Source: Myxococcota bacterium (GTDB taxonomy: Bacteria; Myxococcota_A; Bradymonadia; UBA7976; UBA1532). Taken from it: DNA of 62,945 nucleotides. Position 1 is the stretch's first letter. Each line of letters begins with the position of its first letter. A model generated the notes under the pieces. That model had not been told where the DNA came from, ran no database searches, and saw only the letters and a program-made list of their open reading frames with translations. The DNA is taken from NCBI GenBank assembly GCA_018813065.1, contig JAHJCH010000337.1, positions 1-62,945 on the forward strand, in the 5' to 3' direction. Below, piece after piece: positions 27,418-44,887 of this stretch. The translations under genes and the position numbers were made by a program.

Positions 27418-28632
27418 TTACTCGGTGGGCTGATCCGCGTCGGCCTCGGCGCGGGCGGAGATCATCTCCGCGTTGGGCAGGCAGACCTTGGCCTCGACGG
27501 CGGCGGCGCCGCTCTCGCCGATAAAGCGCGGCGTGACGAGATCCAAGGTCACCTCCAAGTCCGCGCAGTCACCGTTGATCTCATGGGCCTTGCTGACGCA
27601 GATGCCTGTCGTGGGGGCCAGCGGATCTTCTGCACAGAAGGTGGGCGCCTTGCCCGCCAGGTCGGGGCAGTAGCCCTCACAGGCTTGCGTGCAGAAGCCA
27701 GCCTCATGGCAGAATTGGCCGCTGGTGCAGTCGCCCTCAGCGGCGCAAGGATCGCCGATAAAGCTCAGCGCCACGTTATTGAGCAGCGGGAAGACGGCCT
27801 TATCGCCGAGGTGGGTGAACTGATAACCCTCCTCCTTGAGCTTGAGGATCAAGGGCTCGATGGCGTCGATGGTGGTCTGGTGGATGTCATGGAAGAGGAG
27901 GACGCCGCCCTCGCGCTGGCGGACCTGGTGCATGGTCCAGTCGCTCATGCTGCCGCGGAACGCATCGGGGACGTGCTGGAACGTGCTGGCCTTGCAGTAG
28001 CCGCCGCCCGCCTTATAGCACCAGTCGGCGCTGTCGATGTGCCAGCCGGTGATCTTGTAGCCACGTTCGCGGACCTTGTCGGCGCTCATGCAGCTGGAGG
28101 AGCCATAGGGGAAGCGGAAGAAGCTGGGGGCGCCACCAGCGCCCTCGATGAGCGCCGTGACCTTGTCGATCTCGGAGATCACGCGCGCCTCATCCTGGAG
28201 CTTCATGTTGGGGTGGCTCCAGGTGTGGTTGCCTACGGTGAAGAGGGGATCGGCGACCATCTCTTCGAGCAAGGCGAGGCGGGCCTCACCCTCGACGCGG
28301 TTGACAAAGAAGGTGGCGGGCACCTCATGACGGCGGAGGATCTCGAGCAGCTGTGGCGTGGTGCTGAGGCTGGGGCCGTCGTCAAAGGTGAAGGTGACGA
28401 AGCGGTTAAAGCCGCTCTGATCAGGGACGACCACCCCGGAGCAGGTGGAGGTGTCGCCCTTGAGCTCCTCCATCTCCACGAAGCTTTGGTTCCAAAGCGC
28501 GGGATCCTCGCGAGGCGCCATCACGTCATCGGGCGACGTGGAGGCCTCCTCAGCGCAGGCCAATAAACTCAAGCTGAGCGGTAAGATGAGCGTGAGGCGG
28601 GTGAGCCTTTGCATGGCGACTCTTCCTTTCAT
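27418..28632 (-). CDS. polysaccharide deacetylase (NodB-type) lipoprotein with a Cys-rich C-terminal tail
   Basis: Lipobox LSLLAC. FTFDDGPS and HTWSHPN NodB motifs. Its ATG overlaps the TGA of the upstream gene (ATGA). Confidence 0.85.
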   Translation of the reverse strand: MKGRVAMQRLTRLTLILPLSLSLLACAEEASTSPDDVMAPREDPALWNQSFVEMEELKGDTSTCSGVVVPDQSGFNRFVTFTFDDGPSLSTTPQLLEILRRHEVPATFFVNRVEGEARLALLEEMVADPLFTVGNHTWSHPNMKLQDEARVISEIDKVTALIEGAGGAPSFFRFPYGSSSCMSADKVRERGYKITGWHIDSADWCYKAGGGYCKASTFQHVPDAFRGSMSDWTMHQVRQREGGVLLFHDIHQTTIDAIEPLILKLKEEGYQFTHLGDKAVFPLLNNVALSFIGDPCAAEGDCTSGQFCHEAGFCTQACEGYCPDLAGKAPTFCAEDPLAPTTGICVSKAHEINGDCADLEVTLDLVTPRFIGESGAAAVEAKVCLPNAEMISARAEADADQPTE

Positions 28633-30725
28633 TTTTGGGGGACATCGCCGGTTTTAGCAAAACCTGAACCTAATTTCGAGAGCGCATGACGTAGCCGCGC
28701 GCGCTGCTCAGGATCAATGGGCTGAGCGCCAAAGCGCGCGCGCTCGTATGTGTCGCAGATCTCCTCCGCCAACGAGAGCCCCGGCGCGCCTCGCGCCCTC
28801 AGCAGCGCTAAAATTTCAACGTGTGTCATATGATTTGTGATCATCAATCCCCTTTGAGCATAAAAGTCAATCATCATTTGATATAGGTCCTTTTTAATTT
28901 TTTCTTTTTTGAGCGGGTGAGGATGATCAACAGCATTAATGGCAATTATTTTCTCTTTTATCGCGATAATTATCGCGACAATTGAGATGATTAGAATCAA
29001 TATGGCCATAATTAACTTTAAATCAATATCAAGTTTCCCTATGTAGTTAATTACTGAAAGTATGTGTTGATATTTATTGTCAACGCTATTATTTTTAATA
29101 AACTCATGCCATTTTATATTAATAAAATCAATATAGTTGGATATTGGCTGATAAAATAAACCGTTTTGTGTGATATGGCTCGTCGGTGTTGGGTCAAAGA
29201 TAACCCATCCATATTTATCTGTCCATATTTCAACCCAAGAGTGTGCATTTGCCCCGCTCATAATTAAAAAATTTCCTTGAGGATTCCATCTGCCACCATA
29301 AAATCCATTTATATTTCTAGATGGAATGCCCATTTGCCTCAATAATATAATAGCAACCGTGCTAAAGTATTCACAATGACCTGATTTTGTTCGCAAGAAA
29401 AAATCATTTACATTTTTATTTTTTGAAGAGGTGCTATATTTATACTGCTTGAAAGCAGTTGATATATTATCTGTTACATCATTCAGAGTTTTAGATTGTT
29501 TTTTTATGCTTTCAGATAAAACCTGAAAATCATCGTGTATGTCTGACGGCAACTGCAAATATTTTTGTTTATTTTGTGGGAACTTAAGAGAGTTAATCGA
29601 TATATCACTTAAACCATAACCATATCCGCTATTTTTAGCAATTACTCTATATGAAAAGTGATTGTTCATATAATCTAGATCTAAACTCTCTCTAAAAAAA
29701 TCATTTTCTTGATCATAGCTAATCGTATAATAGTTCTGATCGTTTTCGTCAAAAATAACAAGTGGATCTTCAGATGGCTTAAATAATATATTTGATTTTA
29801 TGTCAATGACATCAATATCAAATTGTTCTAATTTTGTTATACCGCTGTAATCTCGCTGATTTATATGAGCATCCCGATCAGCTCGATATTGGAAGTATTT
29901 TTTTTGTGATTTATACCATGATTTCCCATCAAAAAAATCAAGACTTACTCCTTTCCAATAAGAATTATCTCGATATTCATGGTTTTTTATTACTATGACA
30001 GGGTTGTAGTTATTTTTAATTAGACCAAATTCACCAATTCTAACCTCATCAGAAAACCCAGATATCTTGTTTTGATTTATTTGACTAAGTTTGTCAAACT
30101 TATTTACTCTTGGTATAAGTGTGAATATTAAAAATGAGAGGGCAATGATCAGAAATGAAGTAAAAACACTAATTATATTAAATTTCTTGCTTACTAATTT
30201 TTTTGAATGAAGGACTTTATTAATTTTAACCCTTTTTCCTTTTAATGAATCTCTATATTTTAAAAGATAGTTATCTTCCATCTCTTTCTTAAGCTGAAAC
30301 ATGATAATACTAAAGACTGAAAACATCGAGTAAAAACTTAATGTAATGAGATATATCGCATTTGAACCCATTATGCCGGATAATCCGATATTTATTAAAG
30401 ATGATATATATAATTTTGCGTAATTAGAGTTTATTTTTTCGCTAAACGAAAATTTTAATGTCGTAATTGAGAGTATCAATATAATTACTTTTAAAAAATC
30501 AGACCTAGATAGATAAAATATGACAATTGATATAGATAAGGCCACATAAAACAACTTGAATAAATTTAAAATTGGTCTATCACTTTTTGGGTCTGAACTC
30601 CAGCTGTGAATCAATAATAAAATTGATATTAAAGGAAATATCGGTGATATCCAGCTTGTTAATGAGATTAGAGAAATCCCAACCATTAAATATGTCGATA
30701 GTTTATGCGCAATAATGAATTTCAT
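28629..30725 (-). CDS. transglutaminase TgpA-like membrane protein (DUF3488 + transglutaminase core)
   Basis: N-terminal multi-TM region. Cys-His-Asp core: SGHCEYFSTV, HSWVEIW, GWVIFDPT. AT-rich except for the last ~60 codons. Confidence 0.85.
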   Translation of the reverse strand: MKFIIAHKLSTYLMVGISLISLTSWISPIFPLISILLLIHSWSSDPKSDRPILNLFKLFYVALSISIVIFYLSRSDFLKVIILILSITTLKFSFSEKINSNYAKLYISSLINIGLSGIMGSNAIYLITLSFYSMFSVFSIIMFQLKKEMEDNYLLKYRDSLKGKRVKINKVLHSKKLVSKKFNIISVFTSFLIIALSFLIFTLIPRVNKFDKLSQINQNKISGFSDEVRIGEFGLIKNNYNPVIVIKNHEYRDNSYWKGVSLDFFDGKSWYKSQKKYFQYRADRDAHINQRDYSGITKLEQFDIDVIDIKSNILFKPSEDPLVIFDENDQNYYTISYDQENDFFRESLDLDYMNNHFSYRVIAKNSGYGYGLSDISINSLKFPQNKQKYLQLPSDIHDDFQVLSESIKKQSKTLNDVTDNISTAFKQYKYSTSSKNKNVNDFFLRTKSGHCEYFSTVAIILLRQMGIPSRNINGFYGGRWNPQGNFLIMSGANAHSWVEIWTDKYGWVIFDPTPTSHITQNGLFYQPISNYIDFINIKWHEFIKNNSVDNKYQHILSVINYIGKLDIDLKLIMAILILIISIVAIIIAIKEKIIAINAVDHPHPLKKEKIKKDLYQMMIDFYAQRGLMITNHMTHVEILALLRARGAPGLSLAEEICDTYERARFGAQPIDPEQRARLRHALSKLGSGFAKTGDVPQK

Positions 30726-31759
30726 TAATTTATCCTCAAATTTTCATCTATTAAATACATTGATTGAATATATGACCATAGATTAGAGCTGCTATGCGCA
30801 ATTAAAATATCAACATTTGCGGGTTTAATGAAACTATCTTCAATCTCTTCACTAAAACTAAGAAATGACATAAACTTTAAAAAGTCATCTTCGTGACCTT
30901 CATCAAGATGTATTGTCTCTTGGTTCATAATTAGTTTAATTTTATGTTGTTTTAGTAATTTAATGACAACGCTTGAAGCTAAGCTGATAAGATATTCAAC
31001 ATCTTCTTGATTTTCATTTAGATCCTTTATTTTTGTATTTAAAAAAACGGATAATATTTTTTTATCCTCCGTTATATGATCAACAACGTATAATTCATTT
31101 TTTTTCGCAGATATTTTCCAATTTATTAGATGAAGCGAATCATTTTCCCTATATTTTCTAATTAAAAATGGATCATTTTCTTTGATTTTATTTTTATTGA
31201 TTAGTTGTTCAAAGAACAAATCACTTAAATCGATCAGTCTTGGGAAGACAATTAAATCTGATCCTTGGCTAAACCTGTAAGTCTTCAAAAAGAAGGAAAA
31301 TGGAAATCGAGTGCCAATTTTAATGTATTTATATTTGTATAAGCCTCTTTTGGGGATTTCAAATCGATAATTTGTCTCTTGGTTTGTTTTAGGCGGTATC
31401 TTGAGGAAATAACATCTCTTGGCGATATGGCTTTGCTCAATCCCGTCCTCTACCTGCACGCTGAACGAGGGCATCCAACGCTTCTCATTGCGCAGATCAA
31501 TGGAGACGAGGAAGGGCGTCGCCGCGAAGACTTGACTGGGGAGGCGCCGCGTGGCCTTGAGGCCCTTGAGGGTCCACTCTGAGAGCAGCCCGCTGACGAT
31601 GATCATCGCGAGGAGATGACACAGCAGCAGGTGAAGCACGTCGTTGCCCGTGCTCACCGCGCCGAAGCCAATGGTGAGGGTGATGACGCCGAGGTAGCGC
31701 CCCTCTTGGGTGAGGTGCAGGCTGCGGCGTGGGCGATCAGCGCGCGAGCGCCGCCTCAG
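30725..31759 (-). CDS. DUF58-family protein (5' end unresolved)
   Basis: Two N-terminal TM helices, then YRENDSLHLINWKISAKKNELYVVDH, which is typical of DUF58. The track ORF extends to 31984 but overlaps rpsN. Between the rpsN stop and the first TM helix I found only in-frame CTG codons (31759, 31720). Confidence 0.65.
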   Translation of the reverse strand: MRRRSRADRPRRSLHLTQEGRYLGVITLTIGFGAVSTGNDVLHLLLCHLLAMIIVSGLLSEWTLKGLKATRRLPSQVFAATPFLVSIDLRNEKRWMPSFSVQVEDGIEQSHIAKRCYFLKIPPKTNQETNYRFEIPKRGLYKYKYIKIGTRFPFSFFLKTYRFSQGSDLIVFPRLIDLSDLFFEQLINKNKIKENDPFLIRKYRENDSLHLINWKISAKKNELYVVDHITEDKKILSVFLNTKIKDLNENQEDVEYLISLASSVVIKLLKQHKIKLIMNQETIHLDEGHEDDFLKFMSFLSFSEEIEDSFIKPANVDILIAHSSSNLWSYIQSMYLIDENLRIN

Positions 31760-31790
31760 CCCAGGCCATGAGCCGCGGTGAGGTGGACCC

Positions 31791-32096
31791 TCACCAGCTG
31801 GCCTTGACGACCCCAGGGAGGTTGCCCTTGAGCGCCTCTTGACGCAGGGAGATGCGTGAGAGCCCAAACTTGCGGTAGTAGCCGCGCGCGCGGCCAGTAA
31901 GGTGACAACGATTGACGATCCGCGTGGCGCTGGCGTCACGCGGCATCTTCGCCAGCTTGGCCTGAGCCTCCCACTTCTCCTCAAGGGTCGTCTCAGGGTT
32001 CTTGATGACCGCGATCAGCGCTTGACGGTGCTCGGCGTGCTTAGCGGTGAGCGCGCGGCGCTGCTTGTTCTTCGCGATGCTGCTCTTCTTAGCCAT
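31791..32096 (-). CDS. rpsN: 30S ribosomal protein S14 (long, non-zinc form)
   Basis: MAKKSSIAKNKQRR...NRCHLTGRARGYYRKFGLSRISLRQEALKGNLPGVVKASW is a full-length S14 signature. Confidence 0.93.
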   Translation of the reverse strand: MAKKSSIAKNKQRRALTAKHAEHRQALIAVIKNPETTLEEKWEAQAKLAKMPRDASATRIVNRCHLTGRARGYYRKFGLSRISLRQEALKGNLPGVVKASW

Positions 32097-33398: not shown

Positions 33399-34877
33399 AT
33401 GGAGGCTCGCTCTCGTCTTATGCGCTCAATCTGCCAAAGCCAAACGCTCTGCCTCCTCCTCGGCGCCTCGCTCTGGGCGTGTCAAGAGGCGCCCGATCAG
33501 CGCCTTGAGATCGAGGGGGAGGAGATCGACGCCAGCGCGCGCCTTGATCTCGGGGCCAGGCTTGACGCCGCGCTCATGGACGCCGCCTTGGACACGCTGC
33601 TCATCCCCGACACAGCTGTGATCCCCGACGCGTTGCTTATCTCCGACACGGCTGAGATCCCCGACGCGGCTGAGATCCCCGACGCGGCTGAGATCCCCGA
33701 CGCGGCTGAGATCGCTGAGGAGGTCTGTGATGGGATCGACAATGATTTAGATGGGCTGATCGATGAGGCGCTCGCCAACATCTGCGGGGGCTGCGGTCCA
33801 ATCCCAGAGGGCGGCTGTCAGAGCTGGCGGATCAGCTTGCCAGAGGGGCTCATCCAGCCCAGCCGGGTCCTCAGCCTCCAAGGGCGCGTGCTGCGTGAGG
33901 CGGCCTTGGACATCGAGGGCGCGCGCTGCACGCTCTTGGAGATCGGCGCCGATGGCGGAGGCGCGCACCTCGGCGTGGTGGATATCCAAAGCCCCCAGGC
34001 TGCGCTTCAGCTGGTGCCCTATGTCGATGACGTCGAGGGGGTGATCTATACCCCGTCGCCTGACACGCCGCTGCGGCTCTATGAGGGCGACGCGCCGCTG
34101 CGGATCTGGGCGGGCGGCGGCGCGGTCATCCCCGCTTTTGAGGTCAACACGCGCGGGCCAGGCACGATGGCCGACGTGGAGGGGCTGGAGGGCGTGATGG
34201 ACAAGGCCACGGGGGCCATGCGCGGGGAGACGCCCCTGAGCTGGCGCCCCGGTGAGGGCGCGCTGACGCTCTACATCGGCGGCAGCCGTCCCCTCTTCTC
34301 CCGGCCCGAGTATCAGTCCATCGCGCACTATCAGCTCAACGCGCGCTTGGTCGATGATGGCCGCTGCGCCTTGCCTGATCTCTTCGACGGGGGGCTGCTC
34401 GACAGCTCAGTCTGGGTCTATCTCCAGCGCGCCCGCCTCCAGCCGCTTGTCTTTGGGCCACACGCGGCGCTGATCGAGACGAGCAGCCGCGTCGAGGCGC
34501 GCCGCGCCGGGGTCTTGGAGGGCGATGAGCCCTCGCCCGTGCGCTTTGAGGCGCCCTCGCCCGTCGAGCCGCAGATCACGCCCGGCGCGCCGCTGCGGGT
34601 GGCCTGGGCGCCGCTGCCCGAGGGGCCTGGGCCGCTGCGGGTGAGCTTGACGTTGCATGATCGCGCCGCTGGCGTGAGCCGTCAGCTGGCCTGTGAGGTG
34701 GTGGACCCCAGCCGTGGCGCCTTGATCTTGCCCGAGGAGATGACCACAGCGTGGCCGACAGGGGAGGGCGACACTCGCCAGATCTCCCTGAGCTGGGTGA
34801 CACACAGCGCGACGCTGCCCGCCCCCGATGAGGGCACCTTGACCCGCTCGATCTCAACCCTGCTGCGCCTGCCTTAA
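33399..34877 (+). CDS. secreted/lipoprotein with AEIPDA repeats and one MopE-like motif
   Basis: Signal with LWAC lipobox, 18-bp repeats at 33615-33719, and a CDGIDNDLDGLIDE motif. Confidence 0.6.
   Translation: MEARSRLMRSICQSQTLCLLLGASLWACQEAPDQRLEIEGEEIDASARLDLGARLDAALMDAALDTLLIPDTAVIPDALLISDTAEIPDAAEIPDAAEIPDAAEIAEEVCDGIDNDLDGLIDEALANICGGCGPIPEGGCQSWRISLPEGLIQPSRVLSLQGRVLREAALDIEGARCTLLEIGADGGGAHLGVVDIQSPQAALQLVPYVDDVEGVIYTPSPDTPLRLYEGDAPLRIWAGGGAVIPAFEVNTRGPGTMADVEGLEGVMDKATGAMRGETPLSWRPGEGALTLYIGGSRPLFSRPEYQSIAHYQLNARLVDDGRCALPDLFDGGLLDSSVWVYLQRARLQPLVFGPHAALIETSSRVEARRAGVLEGDEPSPVRFEAPSPVEPQITPGAPLRVAWAPLPEGPGPLRVSLTLHDRAAGVSRQLACEVVDPSRGALILPEEMTTAWPTGEGDTRQISLSWVTHSATLPAPDEGTLTRSISTLLRLP
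33615..33719 (+). repeat. 18-bp in-frame repeat (AEIPDA), ~6 units
   Basis: gctgagatccccgacgcg occurs 3 times perfectly (33651-33704), flanked by degenerate units. Confidence 0.85.
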
Positions 34878-34879
34878 AC

Positions 34880-36520
34880 CTAAAACAGCCGCCACCACGG
34901 GCGATTGGGATCTGGTTGGGCCTCTTGGGTCGGGGATGCCTCCTCAACCTCCTCGATCTCTTGGGCCGCCTCGGGCGGCGTGGGCGCGTCCTCGGGCGTG
35001 GGCGCGTCCTCGGGCGTGGCCGCGATCAAGGGCGCGGAGGGCTTGCTCAGGCTGAGGGGCGCCTCGTCGAGGGCCGCGCGCCACGGATAGCGCGCTTGTA
35101 ACGCGCGGACCTCCGCCCGCAGCGGCGCGCCCTTGGCGGGATCGACCATGTAGACGAAGTCGGCGAAGCCCATCATCGAGGCGAAGAGATCCTCGCCCTG
35201 CCCCCAGCGCTTGCCCTTGGGGCCGTCAAGGCGCACTTGGTGTAAGAGCGCGCGGAACCGACGCAGCGCGCGGCGCGGCACGCCGAGCTGATCATTGACG
35301 ATCAACCCCGTCACCTCTTGGCGCCGCCCCCTGCGCAGGATACGGGTCTTGTCCTCGTTGATCCGCAGCCCCTCGTCCTCAATGATGCGCCGCGCGACCC
35401 AGAGCAGCTGGTTGAGATCCTGTCCCTCTCCAGAGAAGGTCAGATCGTCGGCGTAGCGGGTATAGGTCCAGCCATGCTGCGCGGCGTAGCCGCTGAGCCG
35501 GGCGTCGAGGCGACGGCAGATGAGGTTGGTGATGCCCGGGCTGGAGGGCGCGCCCTGCGGGAGCCGCCGCTCACCGCCGCGCACATACCAGGTCCGCCCG
35601 TCCAGCTCCACCGCCTCGATGTCGGCCTCCGTCGTCAAGAGCGCCAAGATCACGGCCACGCTGGGGCTGTAGCCCATGCTGGCGAACAGCCCCCGCGTCC
35701 GGCTGAAGGTGATCGTGGGGAAGAAGTCGGCGAGGTCCATGTTGATGACGACGGCTTGGCCCACATGCGGCGCGGCGTTGCTGAGGATGCCTCGCCCCGC
35801 GCGGAAGCCGTGGGCGGCGTCGTGGAGCCCGATGTCATCGATTTTGTTGATGATCTCGTCGAGTATCCAGCGCTGCACGCGCTTGAGCCGGGGCATGGGC
35901 GCGGAGATCGTGCGCAGGCCGCCGGTCTTCTTGGCGATCCGAAATTGACGGTAGTGACTCTGGCTGGAGACGACGCGCTGGAAGGCGAGGAAGCGCAGCT
36001 CGCCGAGGCTGATGCCCAGGGCGCGGGCCAGATCAGGTGGGCTTTTGAGCTGGGGCAAGGCGGAGGCGCTGAGCCCCTCCAGCCGCTCGCGATAGTCCTC
36101 TGGCTCGGGCTCGGCGCCTAACCAAGCGTCCATGTTGTTGGCGGTCTTGCTCAGATCAAAGGAGACGCCCTCGCCGAGGTAGAGGATCTCCTTGGCTTTG
36201 CGCTGGCGCCACGCCTCGGCGCGCGCGCGCTTGGCCTCGATGCGCGCCTGCTTGTTCTCCTCGCGCTTGCGCCGCGACTCGGCCATGCGCTCCCTGCGGA
36301 TGGCCTTGAGCACCGCCTCGCGGTTCTGTGTCCGCGCCGCTTCGCTTTGCAGCGCGCTGAGCCGCTTGAGGATCTCGCCGCGCCGCTTGTGCGCCCCCCC
36401 TGGATCGACGGGCCGATCTCCCCAGAAGCCGAGGCGGACCATCTCCTCAAGGATAAACTCCGCCTTGGAGGTCTGGCTGATGATGTCGTAGAGCTCTTGT
36501 CTCGTGCGGGGCTGGGTCAT
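34880..36520 (-). CDS. retron-type reverse transcriptase with N-terminal (~160 aa) and C-terminal (~75 aa) extensions
   Basis: LARALGISLGELRFL...YRQFRIAKKTGGLRTISAP, ILSNAAPH (NAXXH), NMDLADFFPTI, LPQGAPSSP, RYADDLTFSG (YADD) and RQEVTGLIVN (VTG). NAXXH and VTG are retron-RT hallmarks. Confidence 0.85.
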   Translation of the reverse strand: MTQPRTRQELYDIISQTSKAEFILEEMVRLGFWGDRPVDPGGAHKRRGEILKRLSALQSEAARTQNREAVLKAIRRERMAESRRKREENKQARIEAKRARAEAWRQRKAKEILYLGEGVSFDLSKTANNMDAWLGAEPEPEDYRERLEGLSASALPQLKSPPDLARALGISLGELRFLAFQRVVSSQSHYRQFRIAKKTGGLRTISAPMPRLKRVQRWILDEIINKIDDIGLHDAAHGFRAGRGILSNAAPHVGQAVVINMDLADFFPTITFSRTRGLFASMGYSPSVAVILALLTTEADIEAVELDGRTWYVRGGERRLPQGAPSSPGITNLICRRLDARLSGYAAQHGWTYTRYADDLTFSGEGQDLNQLLWVARRIIEDEGLRINEDKTRILRRGRRQEVTGLIVNDQLGVPRRALRRFRALLHQVRLDGPKGKRWGQGEDLFASMMGFADFVYMVDPAKGAPLRAEVRALQARYPWRAALDEAPLSLSKPSAPLIAATPEDAPTPEDAPTPPEAAQEIEEVEEASPTQEAQPDPNRPWWRLF

Positions 36521-36537: not shown

Positions 36538-36771
36538 CCAGGGCGCGGCCGAAAACTTCGAAGTTCTCGTCGGAGACTGGACTGTCTCAACTCAATTAAG
36601 GCCCCTATGGGCTAGTCCGTAATTGTTGTCGGCAGACAACGCACCGCCAAATACGGACTAGCCCATACTGGGGCCTACCAGTGAAGAGCAGGCCAGTGAC
36701 GCATGCTCGGTCAAGGTGCATGGACGGCGATCCACCGCCCCACTGCAAGCTTTGCCTCGACCGCACCCTGG
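36538..36771 (-). ncRNA. candidate retron msr-msd non-coding RNA
   Basis: A1 (36771->36758, CCAGGGUGCGGUCG) pairs with a2 (36551->36538, CGGCCGCGCCCUGG) as 12 WC plus 2 GU pairs. Enclosed are a 76-nt hairpin (36600-36675) with 16/16 perfect core arms and two smaller hairpins. The element lies directly upstream of the RT, as in retrons. Confidence 0.55.
36600..36675. repeat. long inverted repeat / hairpin (putative msd stem)
   Basis: GGCCCC-TATGGGCTAGTCCGTA (36600-36621) pairs with TACGGACTAGCCCATA-CT-GGGGCC (36652-36675). Nested inside is GTTGTC-GGCA-GACAAC (36625-36640). Confidence 0.9.
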
Positions 36772-36780
36772 ACGCCTGGT

Positions 36781-38445
36781 CTAATGCCGTCGGTGATTGC
36801 TCTGACCCTCGGAGATCCTCAACGCGAGGATGTGCTCACAGGGGCCTTTGTAGAGCCGGTTATGACGGAACCAAGCGCAGTCGCACTGGGCCTCTTTGAT
36901 ACGCTCATCGGCGTCAATCGTCAAGGAGATATAGTGCGTCTGTTGATCAGCTTGGATCGCCCCGTCCAAATGTAAATGACCTTCGCTGTCTTGGCGCGCC
37001 TCGATCAGCGTCACTTGGCGCCGCATCACAAAGCGGTTGGCCGTGGCCTCTCGCTCGTTGGCGAAGCGCAGCGCGCTGAGCGGCAGCGGCTCACGGCTCA
37101 GCTCACGGGCGCGGTAGACGCCCTGCTCCAGATCGTAGATGGCCCGCCCCGCTTGGGTGAGCGTGCCCAGCGCCCCGAGCACCACCGCGCGATCTAAGCC
37201 CAGCTTGCGGGCGAGATCATCGGGCGCCGCGCGCCAGTCGGCCTTGAGCGCCTCGAAGACCGACGCGCTGGTCAAGGCGTCCACCTCGGCGCGCGGCGCC
37301 ATCAAGTCAAAGTTGCCCGCCGTGGACCAGTCATTGGCCGTCCAGCCGCTGAGCCCCAGCGTGAAGGCCATGTCGCCGAGGTGGGCGATGTAGAACGAGG
37401 GCAGCCCCGTCCCCAAGAGGTAGACCGTGAAGTAATCGGCGATGGGGATCAGCCGCTCCAAGATGTGCAGCCGCCGCCGCCCCCAGACGCGGATCTCTTG
37501 GGGCGTGTCCCCCTCGTAGATCGAGCGTGGGCAGTCGATCTTGATGTTCCAAGGCTCCATCAAGATCTGAACGGGGCGCCCCGGCTTGAGGATGTAGCGC
37601 ATGGAGCGCGGGCCATGCAGCTCCTGCTTTTGCCGCAGCACAAAGCAGATATTGTGGATGTCCATCGGGTGCAGCTTGATCGCCGTCGCCGGCAGCGACA
37701 TGGCAGAGCTGACCTGAAGGAACCCACGCACCCAGGAGTCAGGGAGGTCAATCTTGACCTCTTTAAAGGCGTCTGAGAAGGACGCCTCGTCTATGGTCTG
37801 AACTTGAAACCCAGATGGGTCAATCGTGAAGTCTGTGGGCTTATAGCTGCGGATCTTTTGAAACTCATTGTAAAGCTCCGCGCTGTAATCGATGTTGGTC
37901 GTCCCACACTCAAATTCCTTGACATCCTTGAAGACATCATAGTTGGCGCTGAGGCGACCATAGCTGGATTCATCCTGGCTAAAGCACTCAAAGAAGACCT
38001 GGTCTGGGTGTACGGTGATCACCGGGTCTAAGACAAACCAAGCGTTATAGTCTCGCTTGTAGAGGTAGTCAAAGTAGCGACGCTTGGCCTTGTTGAAGGG
38101 GACACTGTGCTTTTGCTGCTCTAGGTCGATCTTCCTCAGCTCCTCATGAAGCTGGGCCATCTCGCGCTTGGCGCGGCCATGCTCGGCGGCGATGCGCTCT
38201 AAGGCAAACTGCTCCTGCGTCGCCAGCCAGGCCTTGTACTCCTCGCGATCCTTGGGCTTAAACCGTAGATCCGAGACGACGACGCTGTGCAGGGCGCTGA
38301 TCGCCTCGCGGAAGGGGATGTTTTTGCGCAGCAGGCCCCGAAAATAGGTCGGATCTCGCTGGGTGTCCGGCGAGAAGCGCATGGAGGTCTGATCAGGGCG
38401 GCTCTCGATGGCGGTGTTGCCGCTGTATCTATATTGAAACTCCAC
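36781..38445 (-). CDS. SWIM zinc-finger domain protein
   Basis: C-terminal CDCAWFRHNRLYKGPCEHILAL matches the CxC-x(n)-CxH SWIM signature. GTG start at 38445 preceded by GGAGGTGA. Overlaps the upstream gene by 17 nt. Confidence 0.8.
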   Translation of the reverse strand: MEFQYRYSGNTAIESRPDQTSMRFSPDTQRDPTYFRGLLRKNIPFREAISALHSVVVSDLRFKPKDREEYKAWLATQEQFALERIAAEHGRAKREMAQLHEELRKIDLEQQKHSVPFNKAKRRYFDYLYKRDYNAWFVLDPVITVHPDQVFFECFSQDESSYGRLSANYDVFKDVKEFECGTTNIDYSAELYNEFQKIRSYKPTDFTIDPSGFQVQTIDEASFSDAFKEVKIDLPDSWVRGFLQVSSAMSLPATAIKLHPMDIHNICFVLRQKQELHGPRSMRYILKPGRPVQILMEPWNIKIDCPRSIYEGDTPQEIRVWGRRRLHILERLIPIADYFTVYLLGTGLPSFYIAHLGDMAFTLGLSGWTANDWSTAGNFDLMAPRAEVDALTSASVFEALKADWRAAPDDLARKLGLDRAVVLGALGTLTQAGRAIYDLEQGVYRARELSREPLPLSALRFANEREATANRFVMRRQVTLIEARQDSEGHLHLDGAIQADQQTHYISLTIDADERIKEAQCDCAWFRHNRLYKGPCEHILALRISEGQSNHRRH

Positions 38446-41400
38446 CCCTCACCTCCGCAGCTTGGACCTTGATGGGCAGCGAGACGTCGGGCCAGTCTCG
38501 ATGAATTTGAAGCATGATCTCGATGGCGGCGGCGCGGTCGCGGATGGCGATGGTGGCCGACTGGCGTGTCAGGATCTCGGCGATGATCTCGGCGGCCTCG
38601 CGGCTGGCGCGGGCCTCGGCGGCGAAGAAGCGCAGCACACGCTGCTTGGTCAGCCCGCCTTGGTTGACCCGCGACAGCGCGGCGATGAAGTAGAGCTTGA
38701 GCTGCGCCAGCCGCTGGGGGGCGTCGTGGGCGTAGCGCTCCAGGTAGTGGGTGACGAAGCCCTGCATGGCGGCGGAGGGGTGCTCGCTGAGCTTGAGCAG
38801 GTACTCGGGGCCAAAGGCCTCGCGGAAGAAGCGGGTCAGCAAGCCCTGCCCAAAGCGCTGCACGTCCGGCCGCACGCTGTCGCAGAGGCTGACGAGCACG
38901 CTGGGCGGGAAGTCGTCGGCCTCAAAGGCGTCGCCACCAAACAGCTCAAAGGCGAACTGGCGGGTGTCCTCCCAGGCCGCGTCGAGGATGCGCACCGCCT
39001 CGACGATCTGGGCCTTGAGCCGAGGGATGTCCGCGCGGTACATGGCCCACGCGGCCCGGCGCACGGCGGCGATCTCATGGGTGCCCAGCCGGGCGATCTC
39101 GCTGACGCTGAGGTCATCGGGGCGCAGCGCGGTGGGCAGGAGCAGCCCGCCCAGCTCTTGCGCCGGGCCTCGACTGGACTGCAAGAGCCGCATGATCACG
39201 CTCTTGGGCACGCCGTCCATCACCGCGCGCAGATCCTCGCTGAGCACCCGCACGAGATGCGCCCCCGCGCCGTCGGGGAGCTTGTGGCGCAGGAGCGCGC
39301 GGACCAGCTCCACCGCCAAGGCCTCGGCCTGCGTGGGCGCGGCGGCGACGCGCTGCACCACCAGCCGCGCGCTCTCGCGCAGCTGGGCCTCCGAGTGGAT
39401 GGAGAGGGCCACGATCAAGCTCATGTAGCCGGCGACCACCGCGTCGGGCATCCGCGCCATCAGCTGCACCCCCACGGCGCGCGCCGTGGAGAACCGAGAG
39501 TCAAGGAGCGCGACGAGGAGCGCCTCGGGCGTGGCCTCGCCGTAGCCCGCGCGGGCGAGGAGGATCTCCCCGGCCAGCACATGGGCGCTCTCCTCCTGGC
39601 GCTTGAGGAGATCGAGGATCACCGCCTCGCTGATCCGCCGCAGCTGGGCGGAGAACAGCCGCTTGAGCGTGGCGCTGATGTCATCCTTGCGGGCTTGATC
39701 GGCGTCGGCGTCGAGCAGCCGGGCGATGAGCCGGGTGACGATGAGCTGGGCCGTCTCCTCGCTGAGCGTCACCGTCTGGAGATAGCCGCGCCCAAAGCGG
39801 CGGGCCTCCTGCTCAGGGCCGCAGAGCAGATCGGCGAGGAAGAGGGCGTCTTGGGTGAACACCGCGCGGGCGGCCTCAAGCCAATCACGCGCTTGGTCAC
39901 GGGCGGCCTTGAGCGGGCTGTGGATGGCCGCCAAGGCCAAGACGACGCTGGGCGAGGCCGGGTTAAAGCGGCTCGTCGCCAGCTCCAAGCCCAGCTGGTT
40001 GGTGATCTCGTAGGGCGCGCCCAGGAGCAGGGCCAAGAGCTGATCGTCGAAGCTGGAGAATTGGCCTCGCAGCGCGCGTAGGGTGCGCGCGGCGAAGTCA
40101 TGGACCGGCGCGCAGCGGCTCTCGACGAGGAGGTGGATGAGCCCCTCGGGGCGGGCGGCCCACAGGCGCGGGTAAGCGCCCTCATGGCTCACGATCGGCG
40201 CCGCGCTCGGGCGACGATCATCGCCGCGCCCTCTCGGCCGCGCCGCGCTGGGCGTGTTGCTCAAGGAGAAGCGCAGGTGTGCCCGATCAGCGCGCACCCG
40301 CGCGCTGTGGCGATAGAGGATCTGGTTGAAGGCCCAATGGCCGAGGAAGGGCGCCAGCAGGTTGTGCCCCTCGCGGTTGATCCGACCGTAGGCGTCCGTG
40401 TCCTTGAAGCGCAGGAGGTAGCCGACGGCCATGTTGACGTAGTGGGGATCGTCGCGCTCGCCGATCCGCTCCAGAGTCCGCCAAGCGCGGCGGCGCAGAT
40501 ATTGGCGCGTCGCCGAGCTGTAGGCCGCCTTGGCGTTGGGCTGGCCCTGGGCCGCGCCCACCTCGACGCGGTGACCGCCGATGTAGGCGATCTTGCCCCA
40601 GTAAGGCCGCTGGAAATAGGCGCGGGTGACCTCGAAGCGGTGGTTGAGGATGCCCCAAAGCTGCGCATCCTCACGCAGCTCCGCCGACTTAAGCAGGCCA
40701 CGCAACCCCTTGAATGTGTTGGGCTTTAACGGCAGGGTCGCCGCCAGATCCAGGACCGCTGGGCGGGCGGGGCCGTCGATGAGATAGAGGCGGCGGAGCA
40801 GGGTGTGGCTGTCCTTGGAGGGCGCCTCAAAGGCGGCCAGCGCCGCCGCCTTGATGGCCTGCGGCGCGCCCTCGACCAGCGCCTGTCGCAGCGGCGGCGG
40901 CAGCGCGTCGCGCTCGGCGGCGAGGAAGGCTTCGAGCTTGCGCGGCCCATAGAGCGCGCGCAGGGCCTCGCCGGCCACGCGGCGGACATGCTCAAGGGTC
41001 TGCGGGCGCTGGTAGATGTGCTCGACGTCGGGGATCACGGCGGGCTCACCGCAGCGGGCCAGCGCGTAGAGCGAGGCGTAGTCGCGCATGGCCGAGCCGT
41101 GGCCGAGGTGGGCGACAATCAGCGGCGCGGCGGCCCGCAGCCGCAGCTCACCCGCCCGCCAGATGGCGCGATCCAAGGGCCAGCTCGAGGTGACGCTCGT
41201 CGGAGGCGCGCTTGGCGCGCCGCGTCGCCTGCGTCGAGGCGCGCGAGGGATATCCCCCAGCCGCAGCCGCGCCAAGATGGCCCCCTCGCGATCCGCCGCG
41301 CGGTGAACCACTTCATAACCAGACAAGATCGCCGCTGGGGCGACCTCATGGCTGGACAAGGGGGCCTCGCGGGCAGCCTCGCGGGCGGCGCGATGCTGAG

Positions 41401-41770
41401 GCGGCGTCCCGACAGAGCGCCGATCAACCACCCGGATCGGTGAAGGCGCGGCGCCTTGGCCCTTGAGGGTGTAGCCCTTGGCGAGCTGGGTGTTGAGCAG
41501 CGCCTCGAAGATAAACTCGGCGCGTTGTCGTGGCACCGGCGCGAGGGTCTTGGAGCCGTCCTTGAGGACCGCCCCCTCTCGGCCATAGCGGAAGTTGACG
41601 ACGTAGGCGCCTGGGCCGACCTCGCAGAGATCGATCTCGTAGACCTTTCGCCGCGACCCCAGCGCGTAGATAAGCTCGCTTTGTCTGATCACTCTCACTC
41701 TGTCACCACTCTCTGAGCCGCGGCGGGTTGCCTTAGTCAGACCACCATTAGATGCCAATGTCAAGGGCAT
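38429..41770 (-). CDS. WGR-domain protein with ~1000-aa Leu/Ala-rich helical-repeat (HEAT/ARM-like) region
   Basis: N-terminus ...RKVYEIDLCEVGPGAYVVNFRYGREGAVLKDGSKT...AEFIFEALLNTQLAKGYT fits the WGR pattern. ATG at 41768-41770 (the track uses a TTG at 41779). Confidence 0.8.
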   Translation of the reverse strand: MPLTLASNGGLTKATRRGSESGDRVRVIRQSELIYALGSRRKVYEIDLCEVGPGAYVVNFRYGREGAVLKDGSKTLAPVPRQRAEFIFEALLNTQLAKGYTLKGQGAAPSPIRVVDRRSVGTPPQHRAAREAAREAPLSSHEVAPAAILSGYEVVHRAADREGAILARLRLGDIPRAPRRRRRGAPSAPPTSVTSSWPLDRAIWRAGELRLRAAAPLIVAHLGHGSAMRDYASLYALARCGEPAVIPDVEHIYQRPQTLEHVRRVAGEALRALYGPRKLEAFLAAERDALPPPLRQALVEGAPQAIKAAALAAFEAPSKDSHTLLRRLYLIDGPARPAVLDLAATLPLKPNTFKGLRGLLKSAELREDAQLWGILNHRFEVTRAYFQRPYWGKIAYIGGHRVEVGAAQGQPNAKAAYSSATRQYLRRRAWRTLERIGERDDPHYVNMAVGYLLRFKDTDAYGRINREGHNLLAPFLGHWAFNQILYRHSARVRADRAHLRFSLSNTPSAARPRGRGDDRRPSAAPIVSHEGAYPRLWAARPEGLIHLLVESRCAPVHDFAARTLRALRGQFSSFDDQLLALLLGAPYEITNQLGLELATSRFNPASPSVVLALAAIHSPLKAARDQARDWLEAARAVFTQDALFLADLLCGPEQEARRFGRGYLQTVTLSEETAQLIVTRLIARLLDADADQARKDDISATLKRLFSAQLRRISEAVILDLLKRQEESAHVLAGEILLARAGYGEATPEALLVALLDSRFSTARAVGVQLMARMPDAVVAGYMSLIVALSIHSEAQLRESARLVVQRVAAAPTQAEALAVELVRALLRHKLPDGAGAHLVRVLSEDLRAVMDGVPKSVIMRLLQSSRGPAQELGGLLLPTALRPDDLSVSEIARLGTHEIAAVRRAAWAMYRADIPRLKAQIVEAVRILDAAWEDTRQFAFELFGGDAFEADDFPPSVLVSLCDSVRPDVQRFGQGLLTRFFREAFGPEYLLKLSEHPSAAMQGFVTHYLERYAHDAPQRLAQLKLYFIAALSRVNQGGLTKQRVLRFFAAEARASREAAEIIAEILTRQSATIAIRDRAAAIEIMLQIHRDWPDVSLPIKVQAAEVRGGVSI

Positions 41771-41950
41771 TATCGACAAGCATTTCGCGGTTTTTTTTCG
41801 TTAGAAATCAACAGATTAGAGTGAGTGTACCTGGGCGCGGGCGCGGGCTCCGCCGCGCGGCGAGTGCATCCCCCCCTCAGCTCCGCTAGGCTGTCCACCA
41901 AGGCTATATTTTTTTGATTTTCAAGGGATCGAGACGCTGGAGGGCGAGAG

Positions 41951-42841: not shown

Positions 42842-42914
42842 CCTCCTCGCTCTTGAGTGCGCCCGCCTAAAGCCCTAAAGTCCCGCCCAATTGATCGTCC
42901 CCAGGTTGTGCCTT

Positions 42915-43847
42915 ATGAGCCCCTTACGCCGCAGCGCGCGCGCGGCAGCGTGGCGCCTCAGCGCCCTCGGCCTCCTCCTCCTGCTGCCTCCCTCGGGGGG
43001 CTGCGTGCGCGGGATGGCCATCAACGCCTTGGCCGACAGCCTCGCCAGTGAAGGCGGCGCCTGGGCGCGGGATGATGATCCTGAGCTGGTGGCCGACGCG
43101 ACGGCCTTCGGGCTCAAGACCATCGAGAGCCTCCTCGACGCCGAGCCTGAGCACCCCAAGCTGCTCTTGGCGGCCACCCGCAACTTCACGCAGTACGCCT
43201 ACGCGTTCTTGCAGATGGAGGCCGATTACATCGAGGAGGCCGATGAGGCCCGCGCTGAGCGCCTGCGCCAAAGAGCGCTGCGGATGTATCGGCGCGCCAT
43301 CGGCTATGGGCTGCGTGGCCTCGGCGGGGCGCCCTTCGAGGCGACCCTGCGCGCCGACCCACAAGCGGCGGTGGCCAAGCTCGATGAGGACAAGGTGGGG
43401 CTGCTCTATTGGACCGCCGTCGCCTGGGGCGCCTCGGTGGCCCTCAACAAGGATGATCCCGAGATGGCCTCGGGCCTCCAGGGCGTCGATGTGATGCTCA
43501 AGCGCGCGGTGGCCCTCAACGCGGGCTATGGCCAAGGCGCCCTCTATGACTTCCTCGTCTCCTGGGACGCCAGCCGCCCCGAGAGCGCGGGGGGCTCGAT
43601 GGCCCGCGCCGCCGAGCACCTGGAGCGATCCAAGGCCCTCTCCGGCGGCGCGCGGCTCTCACCCCTCCTGGCCTACGCCGAGGGCGTGACGGTCCCCAAG
43701 CAGGAGCGCGCCCGCTTCGAGGCGCTGATCGCGGAGGTCCTCGCCTTTGACGTGGATTCAGCCCCTCAGCACCGCCTAAATAACCTGATCACGCAGCGGC
43801 GCGCGCGGTGGCTCAAGGCCCACGCCGACGACCTCTTTGTTGATTGA
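42915..43847 (+). CDS. TRAP-transporter-associated TPR lipoprotein TatT
   Basis: Lipobox PSGGC. INALADSLAS...DDDPELVADATAFGLKTIESLLDAEPEHPKLLLAATRNFTQYAYAF is typical of the TatT family. Confidence 0.7.
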   Translation: MSPLRRSARAAAWRLSALGLLLLLPPSGGCVRGMAINALADSLASEGGAWARDDDPELVADATAFGLKTIESLLDAEPEHPKLLLAATRNFTQYAYAFLQMEADYIEEADEARAERLRQRALRMYRRAIGYGLRGLGGAPFEATLRADPQAAVAKLDEDKVGLLYWTAVAWGASVALNKDDPEMASGLQGVDVMLKRAVALNAGYGQGALYDFLVSWDASRPESAGGSMARAAEHLERSKALSGGARLSPLLAYAEGVTVPKQERARFEALIAEVLAFDVDSAPQHRLNNLITQRRARWLKAHADDLFVD

Positions 43848-43872
43848 ATCACCAATAAAAACGGAGAATTAC

Positions 43873-44868
43873 ATGCGCTTATCGTTTTGCGCCTTGGCGC
43901 TGCTCTTGGCCCTGCCCCTCGGCGCGGAGGCCAAGAAGGTCAAGCTCAAGCTGACCACCGTCGCCCCCAAAAACTCGGTCTTCCACAAGATGCTCAAGGA
44001 GGTCCGCCGCGACTGGAAGAAGCTCTCCGACGGTCAGGTCAGCGTCAAGATCTACGCGGGCGGCGTGGCCGGGGATGACTATGACGTGATCCGCAAGATG
44101 CGCCTGGGCACCCTCCAAGGCGGCCTGCTGATGGCGGGCGGGCTGTCCACCATCGACAAGGGCATCCACGCGCTGTCGATCCCCATGGCCTTTAAGGACT
44201 TCGGCGAGCTGGATTATGTGGTGGAGGCCCTCACGCCCAAGCTCAACGCGCTCTATGAGGAGAAGGGCTTTATCGTGCTGACCTGGGTGGACGCGGGCTG
44301 GGTGCGCTTCCTCACCAAGACCCCCGCCAAGGCCCCCAAGGACTTCGCCGATCTCAAGCTCTTCGTCGGCGCGGGGCAACCCGAGGTGGCCGAGATCTGG
44401 AAGCAGGTGGGCTTTAACCCGGTGCTCCTGCCCACCACCGAGATCTCCACGGGCCTACAGACAGGCCTGATCACGGCCCTCAACACCACCCCGCAGGCGG
44501 CCAACCTCCTGGGCTGGTACACCCACGCGCCCAACATGACCAACGTCATCATCGCCCCGATGATCATGGGCCTCGTCGTCTACAAGGACGCCTGGGAGAA
44601 GATCGACGCGCCGCTACAGGCGAAGCTCAAGGCGGCGGCGATCAAGGCCGGCGAGCGGTTTAAGAAGCGCATCCGCCCCCAAGACAAGGAGAGCCTCGAC
44701 GCCATGATCAAGCGCGGCCTCAACCTCGTCGAGCCCACCGCCGCCGATCTCGTGGAGTGGGAGAAGCTGATCTCCAGCAAGCCGCACGTGGTCCGTGGGG
44801 AGTACGTCAGCCCCGAGTTCTACGACGAGGCCATCAAGCTCCGCGACGCCTACCGAGCCAAGCGGTAA
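43873..44868 (+). CDS. TRAP transporter substrate-binding protein (DctP family)
   Basis: GGAGA SD, signal peptide, DctP-like length and layout, sits between TatT and the permease. Confidence 0.85.
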   Translation: MRLSFCALALLLALPLGAEAKKVKLKLTTVAPKNSVFHKMLKEVRRDWKKLSDGQVSVKIYAGGVAGDDYDVIRKMRLGTLQGGLLMAGGLSTIDKGIHALSIPMAFKDFGELDYVVEALTPKLNALYEEKGFIVLTWVDAGWVRFLTKTPAKAPKDFADLKLFVGAGQPEVAEIWKQVGFNPVLLPTTEISTGLQTGLITALNTTPQAANLLGWYTHAPNMTNVIIAPMIMGLVVYKDAWEKIDAPLQAKLKAAAIKAGERFKKRIRPQDKESLDAMIKRGLNLVEPTAADLVEWEKLISSKPHVVRGEYVSPEFYDEAIKLRDAYRAKR

Positions 44869-44887
44869 GGCGCGAGCACACCCCCCC

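Follow-up and report, generated by a model that had tools for sequence, protein, structure and literature searches.

What kind of RNA fills the short gap ahead of a reverse transcriptase (RT) gene in a Myxococcota bacterium, and is part of it copied into DNA? The gap lies on contig JAHJCH010000337.1 (assembly GCA_018813065.1), whose 62,945 analyzed nucleotides are hereafter called the window, and an initial annotation had proposed that positions 36538-36771, read on the minus strand, are the msr-msd transcript of a retron placed ahead of its RT. The flanking type XIII proteins, the motifs of the RT, the homologous RNAs found in other genomes (E=7.3e-26) and the covariation among them all agree with that proposal, and we consider it very probable that this interval, 234 nt from the first strand (a1) to the second strand (a2) of its closing stem, is the msr-msd non-coding RNA (ncRNA) of a complete type XIII, Mx162-like retron. 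The class follows from three adjacent genes that best match RT_XIII, SWIM_XIII and WGR_XIII by very large margins, together with an RNA homologous to those upstream of related RTs, in which helices covary and the a1/a2 sequences differ from locus to locus. Within this retron family, which has been described before, the locus is divergent; it has one RNA copy and keeps all motifs intact.

Retron genes flanking the RNA

On the minus strand the retron reads WGR/HEAT gene, SWIM gene, ncRNA and RT, three consecutive open reading frames (ORFs) thus flanking the ncRNA. According to Mestre et al. (2020, PMC7736814), type XIII is defined by a clade 10 RT, accompanied in many, but not all, members by a WGR-like/HEAT-ARM protein (cluster 216). 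The RT (34880-36520, -; 546 aa) has the long N-terminal extension typical of this clade and matches the RT_XIII model of PADLOC at 574.9 bits (E=3.6e-173), the runner-up model reaching 340 bits (6.9e-102); by profile score, it is assigned to clade 10. Pfam RVT_1 spans residues 195-406, and the retron motifs NAAPH248 (NAxxH), YADD356 and VTG403 are present and invariant across 25 aligned homologues. The top matches in PADLOC, NCBIfam and PDB are all retron RTs, as are the nearest solved structures (Ec86, 8.5e-43), among which type XIII is not represented.

The SWIM zinc-finger protein (36781-38445, -; 554 aa; Pfam SWIM) matches SWIM_XIII at E=2e-234 and carries C521-x-C-x12-C-x-H at residues 521-538, as in the type XIII accessory cluster. 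It also contains D140-x7-D-x4-E-x32-D-x33-E, near the DEDE motif of cluster 114_1 (PMC7736814): D-x7-D-x4-E-x32-D is in register, the final spacing being x33 vs. x37 in the published motif. Its gene overlaps by 17 nt an ORF of 1116 aa (38429-41779, -), encoding a WGR-like protein with HEAT/ARM repeats, which matches WGR_XIII at E=1.2e-298 over profile positions 2-972 of 973, with lower-scoring HEAT-ARM_XIII matches and a weak Pfam HEAT_2 match; the real start codon of this ORF may lie further inside. All three proteins are full length with respect to their PADLOC profiles.

Between the SWIM and RT genes there is a gap of 260 nt, which gene finders leave empty. The a1 strand starts 9 nt past the stop codon of the SWIM gene and a2 ends 17 nt ahead of the RT ATG, the latter spacing being as first annotated, and the ncRNA element therefore fills the gap. 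Other RT systems likewise set a structured RNA beside the RT gene, and it could be asked whether the interval is the template repeat of a diversity-generating retroelement or an ncRNA of the DRT2 or DRT9 type. We give practically no credence to this possibility: against the 575 bits of RT_XIII, the NCBIfam models Drt2 and Drt3a score 37 and 20 bits, far under their cut-offs, the window holds no second, variable copy of the interval, and both the a1/a2 plan and the accessory genes mark the locus as a retron. Diversity-generating retroelements, DRT2 and DRT9 share with this locus an RT gene adjacent to a structured template ncRNA, but they lack an a1/a2 stem with a 2'-OH priming guanosine and differ in RT clade, partners and products.

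Structure of the RNA in the window

The closing stem is formed by a1 (36757-36771, -) and a2 (36538-36552, -), which give 14 bp plus A36757-U36552. Checked position by position, 36771-36758 pairs with 36551-36538 through 12 Watson-Crick and 2 G-U pairs, and the extension pairs A36757-U36552, G36756-U36553 and G36755-U36554 are possible, for a stem of 14-17 bp; these are the pairs originally described. The gapless stem scores 41 (z=7.2); when these 333 nt were shuffled 40 times with dinucleotides preserved, the score averaged 19.4 and never exceeded 26. Folding of the minus strand, a check suggested with the first proposal, gave the intergenic RNA (270 nt) a minimum free energy (MFE) of -132.8 kcal/mol, as compared to -99.5 +/- 5.5 kcal/mol for shuffles (z=-6.1; 0/200 shuffles as stable), and the MFE fold includes both the a1/a2 stem and the long hairpin.

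The long msd hairpin (36600-36675, -) has every element with which it had been annotated: a perfect core of 16 bp (TATGGGCTAGTCCGTA), 6 further bp past an AG bulge, and a nested apical hairpin of 6 bp, GUUGUC-UGCC-GACAAC. Below this apical hairpin there is an asymmetric internal loop (UUUGGCGGUGC, 36651-36641, -). A long near-perfect palindrome within an intergenic gap is also what would be expected of a dispersed repeat of the REP (repetitive extragenic palindromic) or MITE (miniature inverted-repeat transposable element) kind, or of an intrinsic terminator of the SWIM gene, in either case unrelated to the RT. The first of these had been named from the start as a finding that would overturn the retron proposal. 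In the 62.9-kb window, however, the core matches only its own two arms, and a 25-mer of the hairpin has no exact match in metagenome or viral collections. The hairpin is not followed by a run of T, the scan called no terminator-like site at this position, and in relatives the hairpin holds a fixed place in a conserved RNA which accompanies the RT gene in different phyla. A repeat or terminator is hence, in our judgment, an extremely improbable explanation.

Inside the closing stem, past a 4-nt bulge (GGCA, 36756-36753), AAGCUU (36747-36752, -) forms an inner duplex with AAGUUU (36558-36553), corresponding to the CCUU/AAGG helix of the family. The msr stem-loop follows (36718-36746, -), in which GCA...UGC closes the hairpin GGGCGGUG-GAU-CGCCGUCC (36740-36733 x 36729-36722). 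A long-range helix joins ACUGGCCUGCUC (36686-36697, -) to GAGACAGUCCAGU (36576-36588, -), and 11/11 of its consensus pairs form in the window. A conserved block on the 3' side, UUGAGUUGAG ... CGAAG (36556-36595, -), consists of invariant or nearly invariant alignment columns. When imposed on the window RNA, the family consensus fold has an energy of -121.8 kcal/mol vs. an MFE of -125.0 kcal/mol, a cost of 3.2 kcal/mol.

Two smaller hairpins of the initial annotation were retained as sequence and abandoned as conserved structure. GAGAC-N6-GTCTC is present at 36588-36573, but as a hairpin it is not conserved: the 3' strand of the long-range helix is composed of its 5' arm, most of its loop and the beginning of its 3' arm. 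The palindrome GAGAACUUCGAAGUUUUC next to a2 (36568-36551 on the minus strand) is likewise present, but it is paired in 67% of the family cells, no better than in shuffles.

Homologous RNAs upstream of related reverse transcriptases

Homologues of the RT number thousands and none exceeds 57% identity, the best match, at this value, belonging to a Nannocystaceae genome. More than 518 relatives turned up in a scan that took one genome for each species, and 80 loci were kept, from Myxococcota, Cyanobacteria, Acidobacteriota, Planctomycetota, Bacteroidota, Clostridia and others. In 43/80 loci the RT is closely preceded by a stretch of 187-218 nt enclosed in a gapless stem of 8-21 bp, with a sequence differing per locus; the stem scores above every one of 40 shuffles in 38/77 loci, and a CGAAGG motif sits immediately 5' of a2. 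A MAFFT alignment (A2) of 38 sequences, the window and 37 loci, revealed a conserved frame that starts with a1, CCUUGCAA, the hairpin GGGCGGUG-GAU-CGCCGUCC and UUGC, and continues with a block ending in CACUGGCCCGCUCUU.ACUGUGCGG, a long hairpin of variable sequence, CCGCUUGAGUUGAGCGGUCCAGUCCUGAGAG..CGAAGG and a2. An nhmmer profile built from the 37 relatives, the window being excluded, has a single match in the window, 36756-36551 (-), at E=7.3e-26, and matches 67/81 related loci. A covariance model found 94 copies and scored the window RNA at 118.8 bits.

The stem of the msd hairpin has a different sequence in every relative, with its shape preserved. In its upper part an asymmetric internal loop, UU.CGGUG on the 5' side only, is conserved in all relatives, and the short apical hairpin above it covaries; this loop could be a protein-binding site on the msDNA (multicopy single-stranded DNA).

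The number and position of the RNA copies vary among relatives. Many carry tandem msr-msd copies, 2-4 before one RT and 220-330 nt apart (L001:4944-5955, L007:4913-5905, L032:4980-5898, L053:5055-5954, L049:683-1425; two copies in L002, L004, L005, L006, L011, L024, L056, L060, L061, L069, L074 and L079, the numbers being those of our collection of loci), while the window has one copy. Tandem copies have the conserved frame in common, and their perfect hairpin stem and a1/a2 differ copy by copy. In some cyanobacterial relatives the sole copy lies 2-3.7 kb upstream of the RT start (L025:3770-3994, L042:3747-3971, L047:2272-2496). No match to the RNA family was found at 14/81 loci (L012, L013, L028, L029, L043, L044, L048, L052, L057, L066, L068, L070, L071, L076). 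Of these, L070 has almost no upstream sequence, and the others may carry another type XIII RNA variant or short-repeat spacers upstream of the RT.

Covariation and the trace of DNA copying

The alignment of homologues that had been recommended as a check displayed a1/a2 strands differing per locus and covariation in the inner helices. RNAalifold recovered the msr hairpin and a long-range helix, ACUGG.C.GCUC / GAG.CG..CCAGU, bearing the long hairpin. Over five helices, 92.6% of the cells of the 38-sequence MAFFT alignment are paired and both sides change in 23/32 pairs; none of 500 shuffles reached any of these measures, and sliding the partner by 1-3 columns lowered pairing to 31-50%. On 93 copies 95.3% of cells are paired, with compensatory changes in 26/32 pairs, in an alignment that was fitted to the covariance model and hence leans towards it. 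In the CCUU/AAGG helix, the AAGG of CGAAGG pairs with the CCUU of CCUUGCAA in 94-96% of cells, and the outer pair covaries (CG 60, UA 6, GU 4, GC 3, AU 2, UG 2).

Two of the inner helices differ in the pairs that they tolerate. The msr hairpin is 99% paired, shows compensatory changes and contains G-U in 52/304 cells (17%), as a helix of the RNA level would; in the long-range helix 8-9 of 11 pairs covary, with G-U in 1/456 cells and A-C in 14. When RNA is copied into complementary DNA, a G-U pair is converted to a C-A mismatch and an A-C mismatch to a T-G wobble. A long-range helix that has to form in the DNA copy as well should therefore avoid G-U and tolerate A-C, and the pattern fits, without proving, a long-range helix required in the msDNA and an msr hairpin required in the RNA only. 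The same strand-polarity test gave a weak signal for a1/a2 (57 G-U vs. 37 A-C, p=0.05).

These data also bear on another possibility, namely that the structured RNA serves the RT gene as a leader or as a signal for processing, or is left over from a retron that has ceased to make DNA. The promoter scan in and near the interval, which found none, and the divergence of the locus within its family could be taken in favor of it, and reverse transcription is here inferred rather than directly observed. The family-wide avoidance of G-U in the long-range helix is nonetheless hard to explain for an element acting purely at the RNA level; in the window all consensus helices form, the catalytic and retron-specific motifs of the RT are intact, the three proteins are full length, and the locus belongs to the retron class first shown to make msDNA. 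We therefore regard a leader or a relic as unlikely, and retain the reading of a retron RNA of which one part is copied.

Priming guanosine and size of the product

The initial annotation had placed the branching guanosine right after a1 and expected an msDNA of 100-130 nt. The position fits the dimensions of Mx162, as seen through relatives of the same size, whereas for the length homology with these relatives predicts a larger product. We take the branch of Mx162 to be residue 20 of the trimmed RNA (G20) and its a1/a2 stem to comprise 34 nt. The published precursor measures 241 nt and loses 16 nt at its 5' end; its msr (71 nt) and msd (162 nt) overlap by 8 nt, and in both Mx162 and Sa163 the priming G stands in the context CAGC, at or just beyond the inner end of the a1/a2 stem (PMC6868368). 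Six of seven relatives (Archangium, two uncultured myxobacteria and similar) have exactly 241 nt, with 34-35 nt for a1, from the a1 start to the base before a2. In these Mx162-sized relatives the G of the stem-A-G context is nucleotide 36-37 (=16+20) of the precursor, and it lies 204-205 nt from the template start, where 205-211 are required (162 + 71 - 20 - 8 = 205). With a 71-nt msr and an 8-nt overlap, the RT would stop in them directly 3' of the UGC closing the msr stem.

When transferred to the window, these dimensions make G36756 (36756-36756, -), preceded by A36757 in the same stem-A-G context, the most likely priming guanosine, with its neighbor G36755 as an alternative. Across the family AG occurs within 4 nt after a1 in 22/44 loci vs. 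a background of 16.7%, the loci not being independent. The predicted msd, template for an msDNA with plus-strand sequence, would then extend over 36552-36717 (-), i.e., about 166 nt, and the final 8 nt of the msr (36710-36717, -) would be the termination zone, paired to the 3' end of the msDNA. Folded as single-stranded DNA, 36552-36717 has an energy of -42.7 kcal/mol (z=-8.4). A branch point three bases before CCUU (GCAG-UACC in myxobacterial loci) was also considered and dropped, as it leaves 189-190 nt to the template start.

The main competitor of G36756 within the same retron RNA is the invariant G of UUG-CA, G36746 (36746-36746, -), at the end of the composite duplex made of a1/a2 and CCUU/AAGG. 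Its column holds G in 38/38 RNAs and faces G36559, whose column is G in 36/38, the other two being shifted by one column; the C before the facing G is essentially invariant as well. The CCUU/AAGG helix is paired and covaries as described above, opposing guanosines at the end of a duplex are the canonical retron geometry (PMC7736814, Figure 2B legend; PMC6868368), and five loci (L001, L039, L049, L060, L069) lack a G in the bulge that separates a1 from CCUU. Priming at G36746 would begin DNA synthesis on C36560 and yield an msDNA of about 140-158 nt. In the Mx162-sized relatives, however, this G lies 177-178 nt from the template start, and a 162-nt msDNA with an RNA of 71-77 nt needs 205-211; distances of 189-190 or 177-178 nt are too short to hold the required 205 nt. 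The context published for Mx162 and Sa163 is moreover CAGC and not UUGC. Priming at G36746 is accordingly a possibility that we take seriously but find doubtful, and G36756 is kept as the candidate in what follows.

Points against a type XIII retron RNA

A number of results weigh against the identification of 36538-36771 as a type XIII retron RNA of the Mx162 kind. The promoter scan returned no sigma-70-like promoter in or near the interval. The Rfam scan that had been suggested as a check did not bring the anticipated support: at a permissive threshold no retron family matched, and the sole hit was a spurious match of a microRNA family to the hairpin. The window RNA scores 89 bits with the nhmmer profile, in a range of 68-182, just three full-length copies being lower, and the RT is without any relative above 57% identity; the low score of the RNA agrees with the divergence of the RT. 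The priming guanosine is not fixed in the alignment, where G36746, and not G36756, is the one invariant G close to the end of the duplex. The link to Mx162 was drawn through size-matched relatives, numbers from a review and general background figures, not from the Myxococcus xanthus sequence: a protein search with the Hyalangium RT and look-ups of a cluster and a contig yielded Archangium, Hyalangium and Melittangium, among others, but no M. xanthus. The msDNA of this locus is predicted from sequence comparison.

Comparison with known retrons

Type XIII is the oldest known class of retrons (Mx162, 1984). Its members were the first shown to make msDNA (PMC7736814; PMC6868368), and Mx162, Mx65, Sa163 and Ne144 are all assigned to it, with an ncRNA structure of their own and signs of vertical inheritance (PMC7736814). 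Four variants of the type XIII ncRNA have been published, named Firmicutes, Mx162, Mx65 and Ne144 (PMC7736814), and the precursor dimensions of the relatives suggest that the window RNA is of the Mx162 variant. Parts of the family description given here may thus already be known from the published type XIII consensus RNA.

Retron-Mxa1 (Mx162, M. xanthus) and Retron-Sau1 (Sa163, Stigmatella aurantiaca), both type XIII with a clade 10 RT, share with the window the long N-terminal extension of the RT, the SWIM and WGR/HEAT partners, and the order a1, a short msr bearing a single strong hairpin, an msd of about 160 nt that contains a long hairpin, a2 and RT. The Archangium, uncultured-myxobacterial and similar relatives, whose RNA is alignable with that of the window, give the 241-nt precursor length of Mx162. 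The differences are nevertheless considerable: the window RT is only 46-50% identical to those of the Mx162-sized myxobacterial relatives, the context of the candidate G is GAGG instead of CAGC, and the hairpin sequence is unrelated. The window a1/a2 has about 15 bp plus the inner duplex, vs. 34 nt in Mx162.

Retron-Nex2 (Ne144) and Retron-Nex1 (Ne160) of Nannocystis exedens have an RT of the same clade, and the closest match of the window RT is from Nannocystaceae. Their msDNAs of 144-160 nt are near the size predicted for the window; for Ne160 several duplicated msr-msd repeats were reported, whereas the window has a single copy. Retron-Eco1 (Ec86), structurally the best-known retron, has in common with the window the general mechanism and the plan of a1/a2, msr hairpins and msd hairpin, and its RT is the solved structure closest to the window RT (E=8.5e-43). 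It is, however, a type II-A3 retron, whose effector is a nucleoside deoxyribosyltransferase-like protein, whose RT of about 320 aa lacks the N-terminal extension, whose msDNA has 86 nt and whose RNA sequence is dissimilar.

Genomic surroundings

An ORF of 492 aa (33399-34877, +) is convergent with the RT gene, with 2 nt between its end and the RT stop codon. It has no significant match in Pfam, PADLOC or NCBIfam, and no counterpart was seen at L081, the sole related locus with called genes. On the other side, just past the retron, lies an ordinary operon for a tripartite ATP-independent periplasmic (TRAP)-type transporter (TAtT, DctP and a fused DctQ-DctM; 42891-46945, +). The whole window, with a G+C content of 64.8%, contains no tRNA gene and therefore gives no sign of the retron lying in an integrated island. 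An AT-rich island of 2.5 kb (28900-31400) has 23-36% G+C in 200-nt windows within surroundings of 65-70%; it takes in the greater part of a transglutaminase-like ORF (28629-30725, -; Pfam Transglut_core, TgpA_N, DUF4129) and a portion of the next ORF, which is without Pfam match (30725-31984), and could reflect a recent transfer or an assembly join.

Proposed mechanism and implications

By homology with described retrons, the ncRNA would be transcribed along with, or just after, the SWIM gene. The a1 strand would pair with a2, the duplex running on past the 4-nt bulge into AAGCUU/AAGUUU, and the RT would recognize the conserved msr stem-loop. DNA synthesis would start on the base adjoining a2, primed by the 2'-OH of a guanosine (most likely G36756) where a1 ends on its inner side. 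The RT would copy about 166 nt, which comprise the conserved block on the 3' side, the long hairpin and the long-range helix, before halting at the foot of the msr stem-loop, near 36717. With the template removed by host RNase H, the expected product is a branched RNA-DNA molecule, the msDNA, whose DNA part would fold into the long hairpin.

Our literature search found no function or structure for type XIII retrons, and the retron census and environmental-retron papers make no mention of type XIII. In this locus, the ncRNA call completes a four-part retron of two accessory genes, RNA and RT. For the family, the difference between an msr hairpin rich in G-U and an msd helix free of it may provide a simple computational marker of the part of a retron RNA that is copied to DNA.

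The variability of the hairpin lends itself to a more speculative idea. A different perfect palindrome occurs at each locus and in each tandem copy, up to four per RT, while the flanks, the UU-CGGUG loop and the G-U-free helix are kept; the stem of the msd hairpin might, on these grounds, be a freely variable specificity module in a nearly invariant RNA frame, a conjecture to which we attach a low probability. If the SWIM/DEDE transposase-like and WGR/HEAT proteins were to read this hairpin in its DNA form, type XIII retrons would amount to programmable DNA-hairpin systems, acting as sensor, decoy or guide. Such a biology would differ from that of the toxin-antitoxin retrons studied so far, and the window would offer a simple, single-copy version of it.

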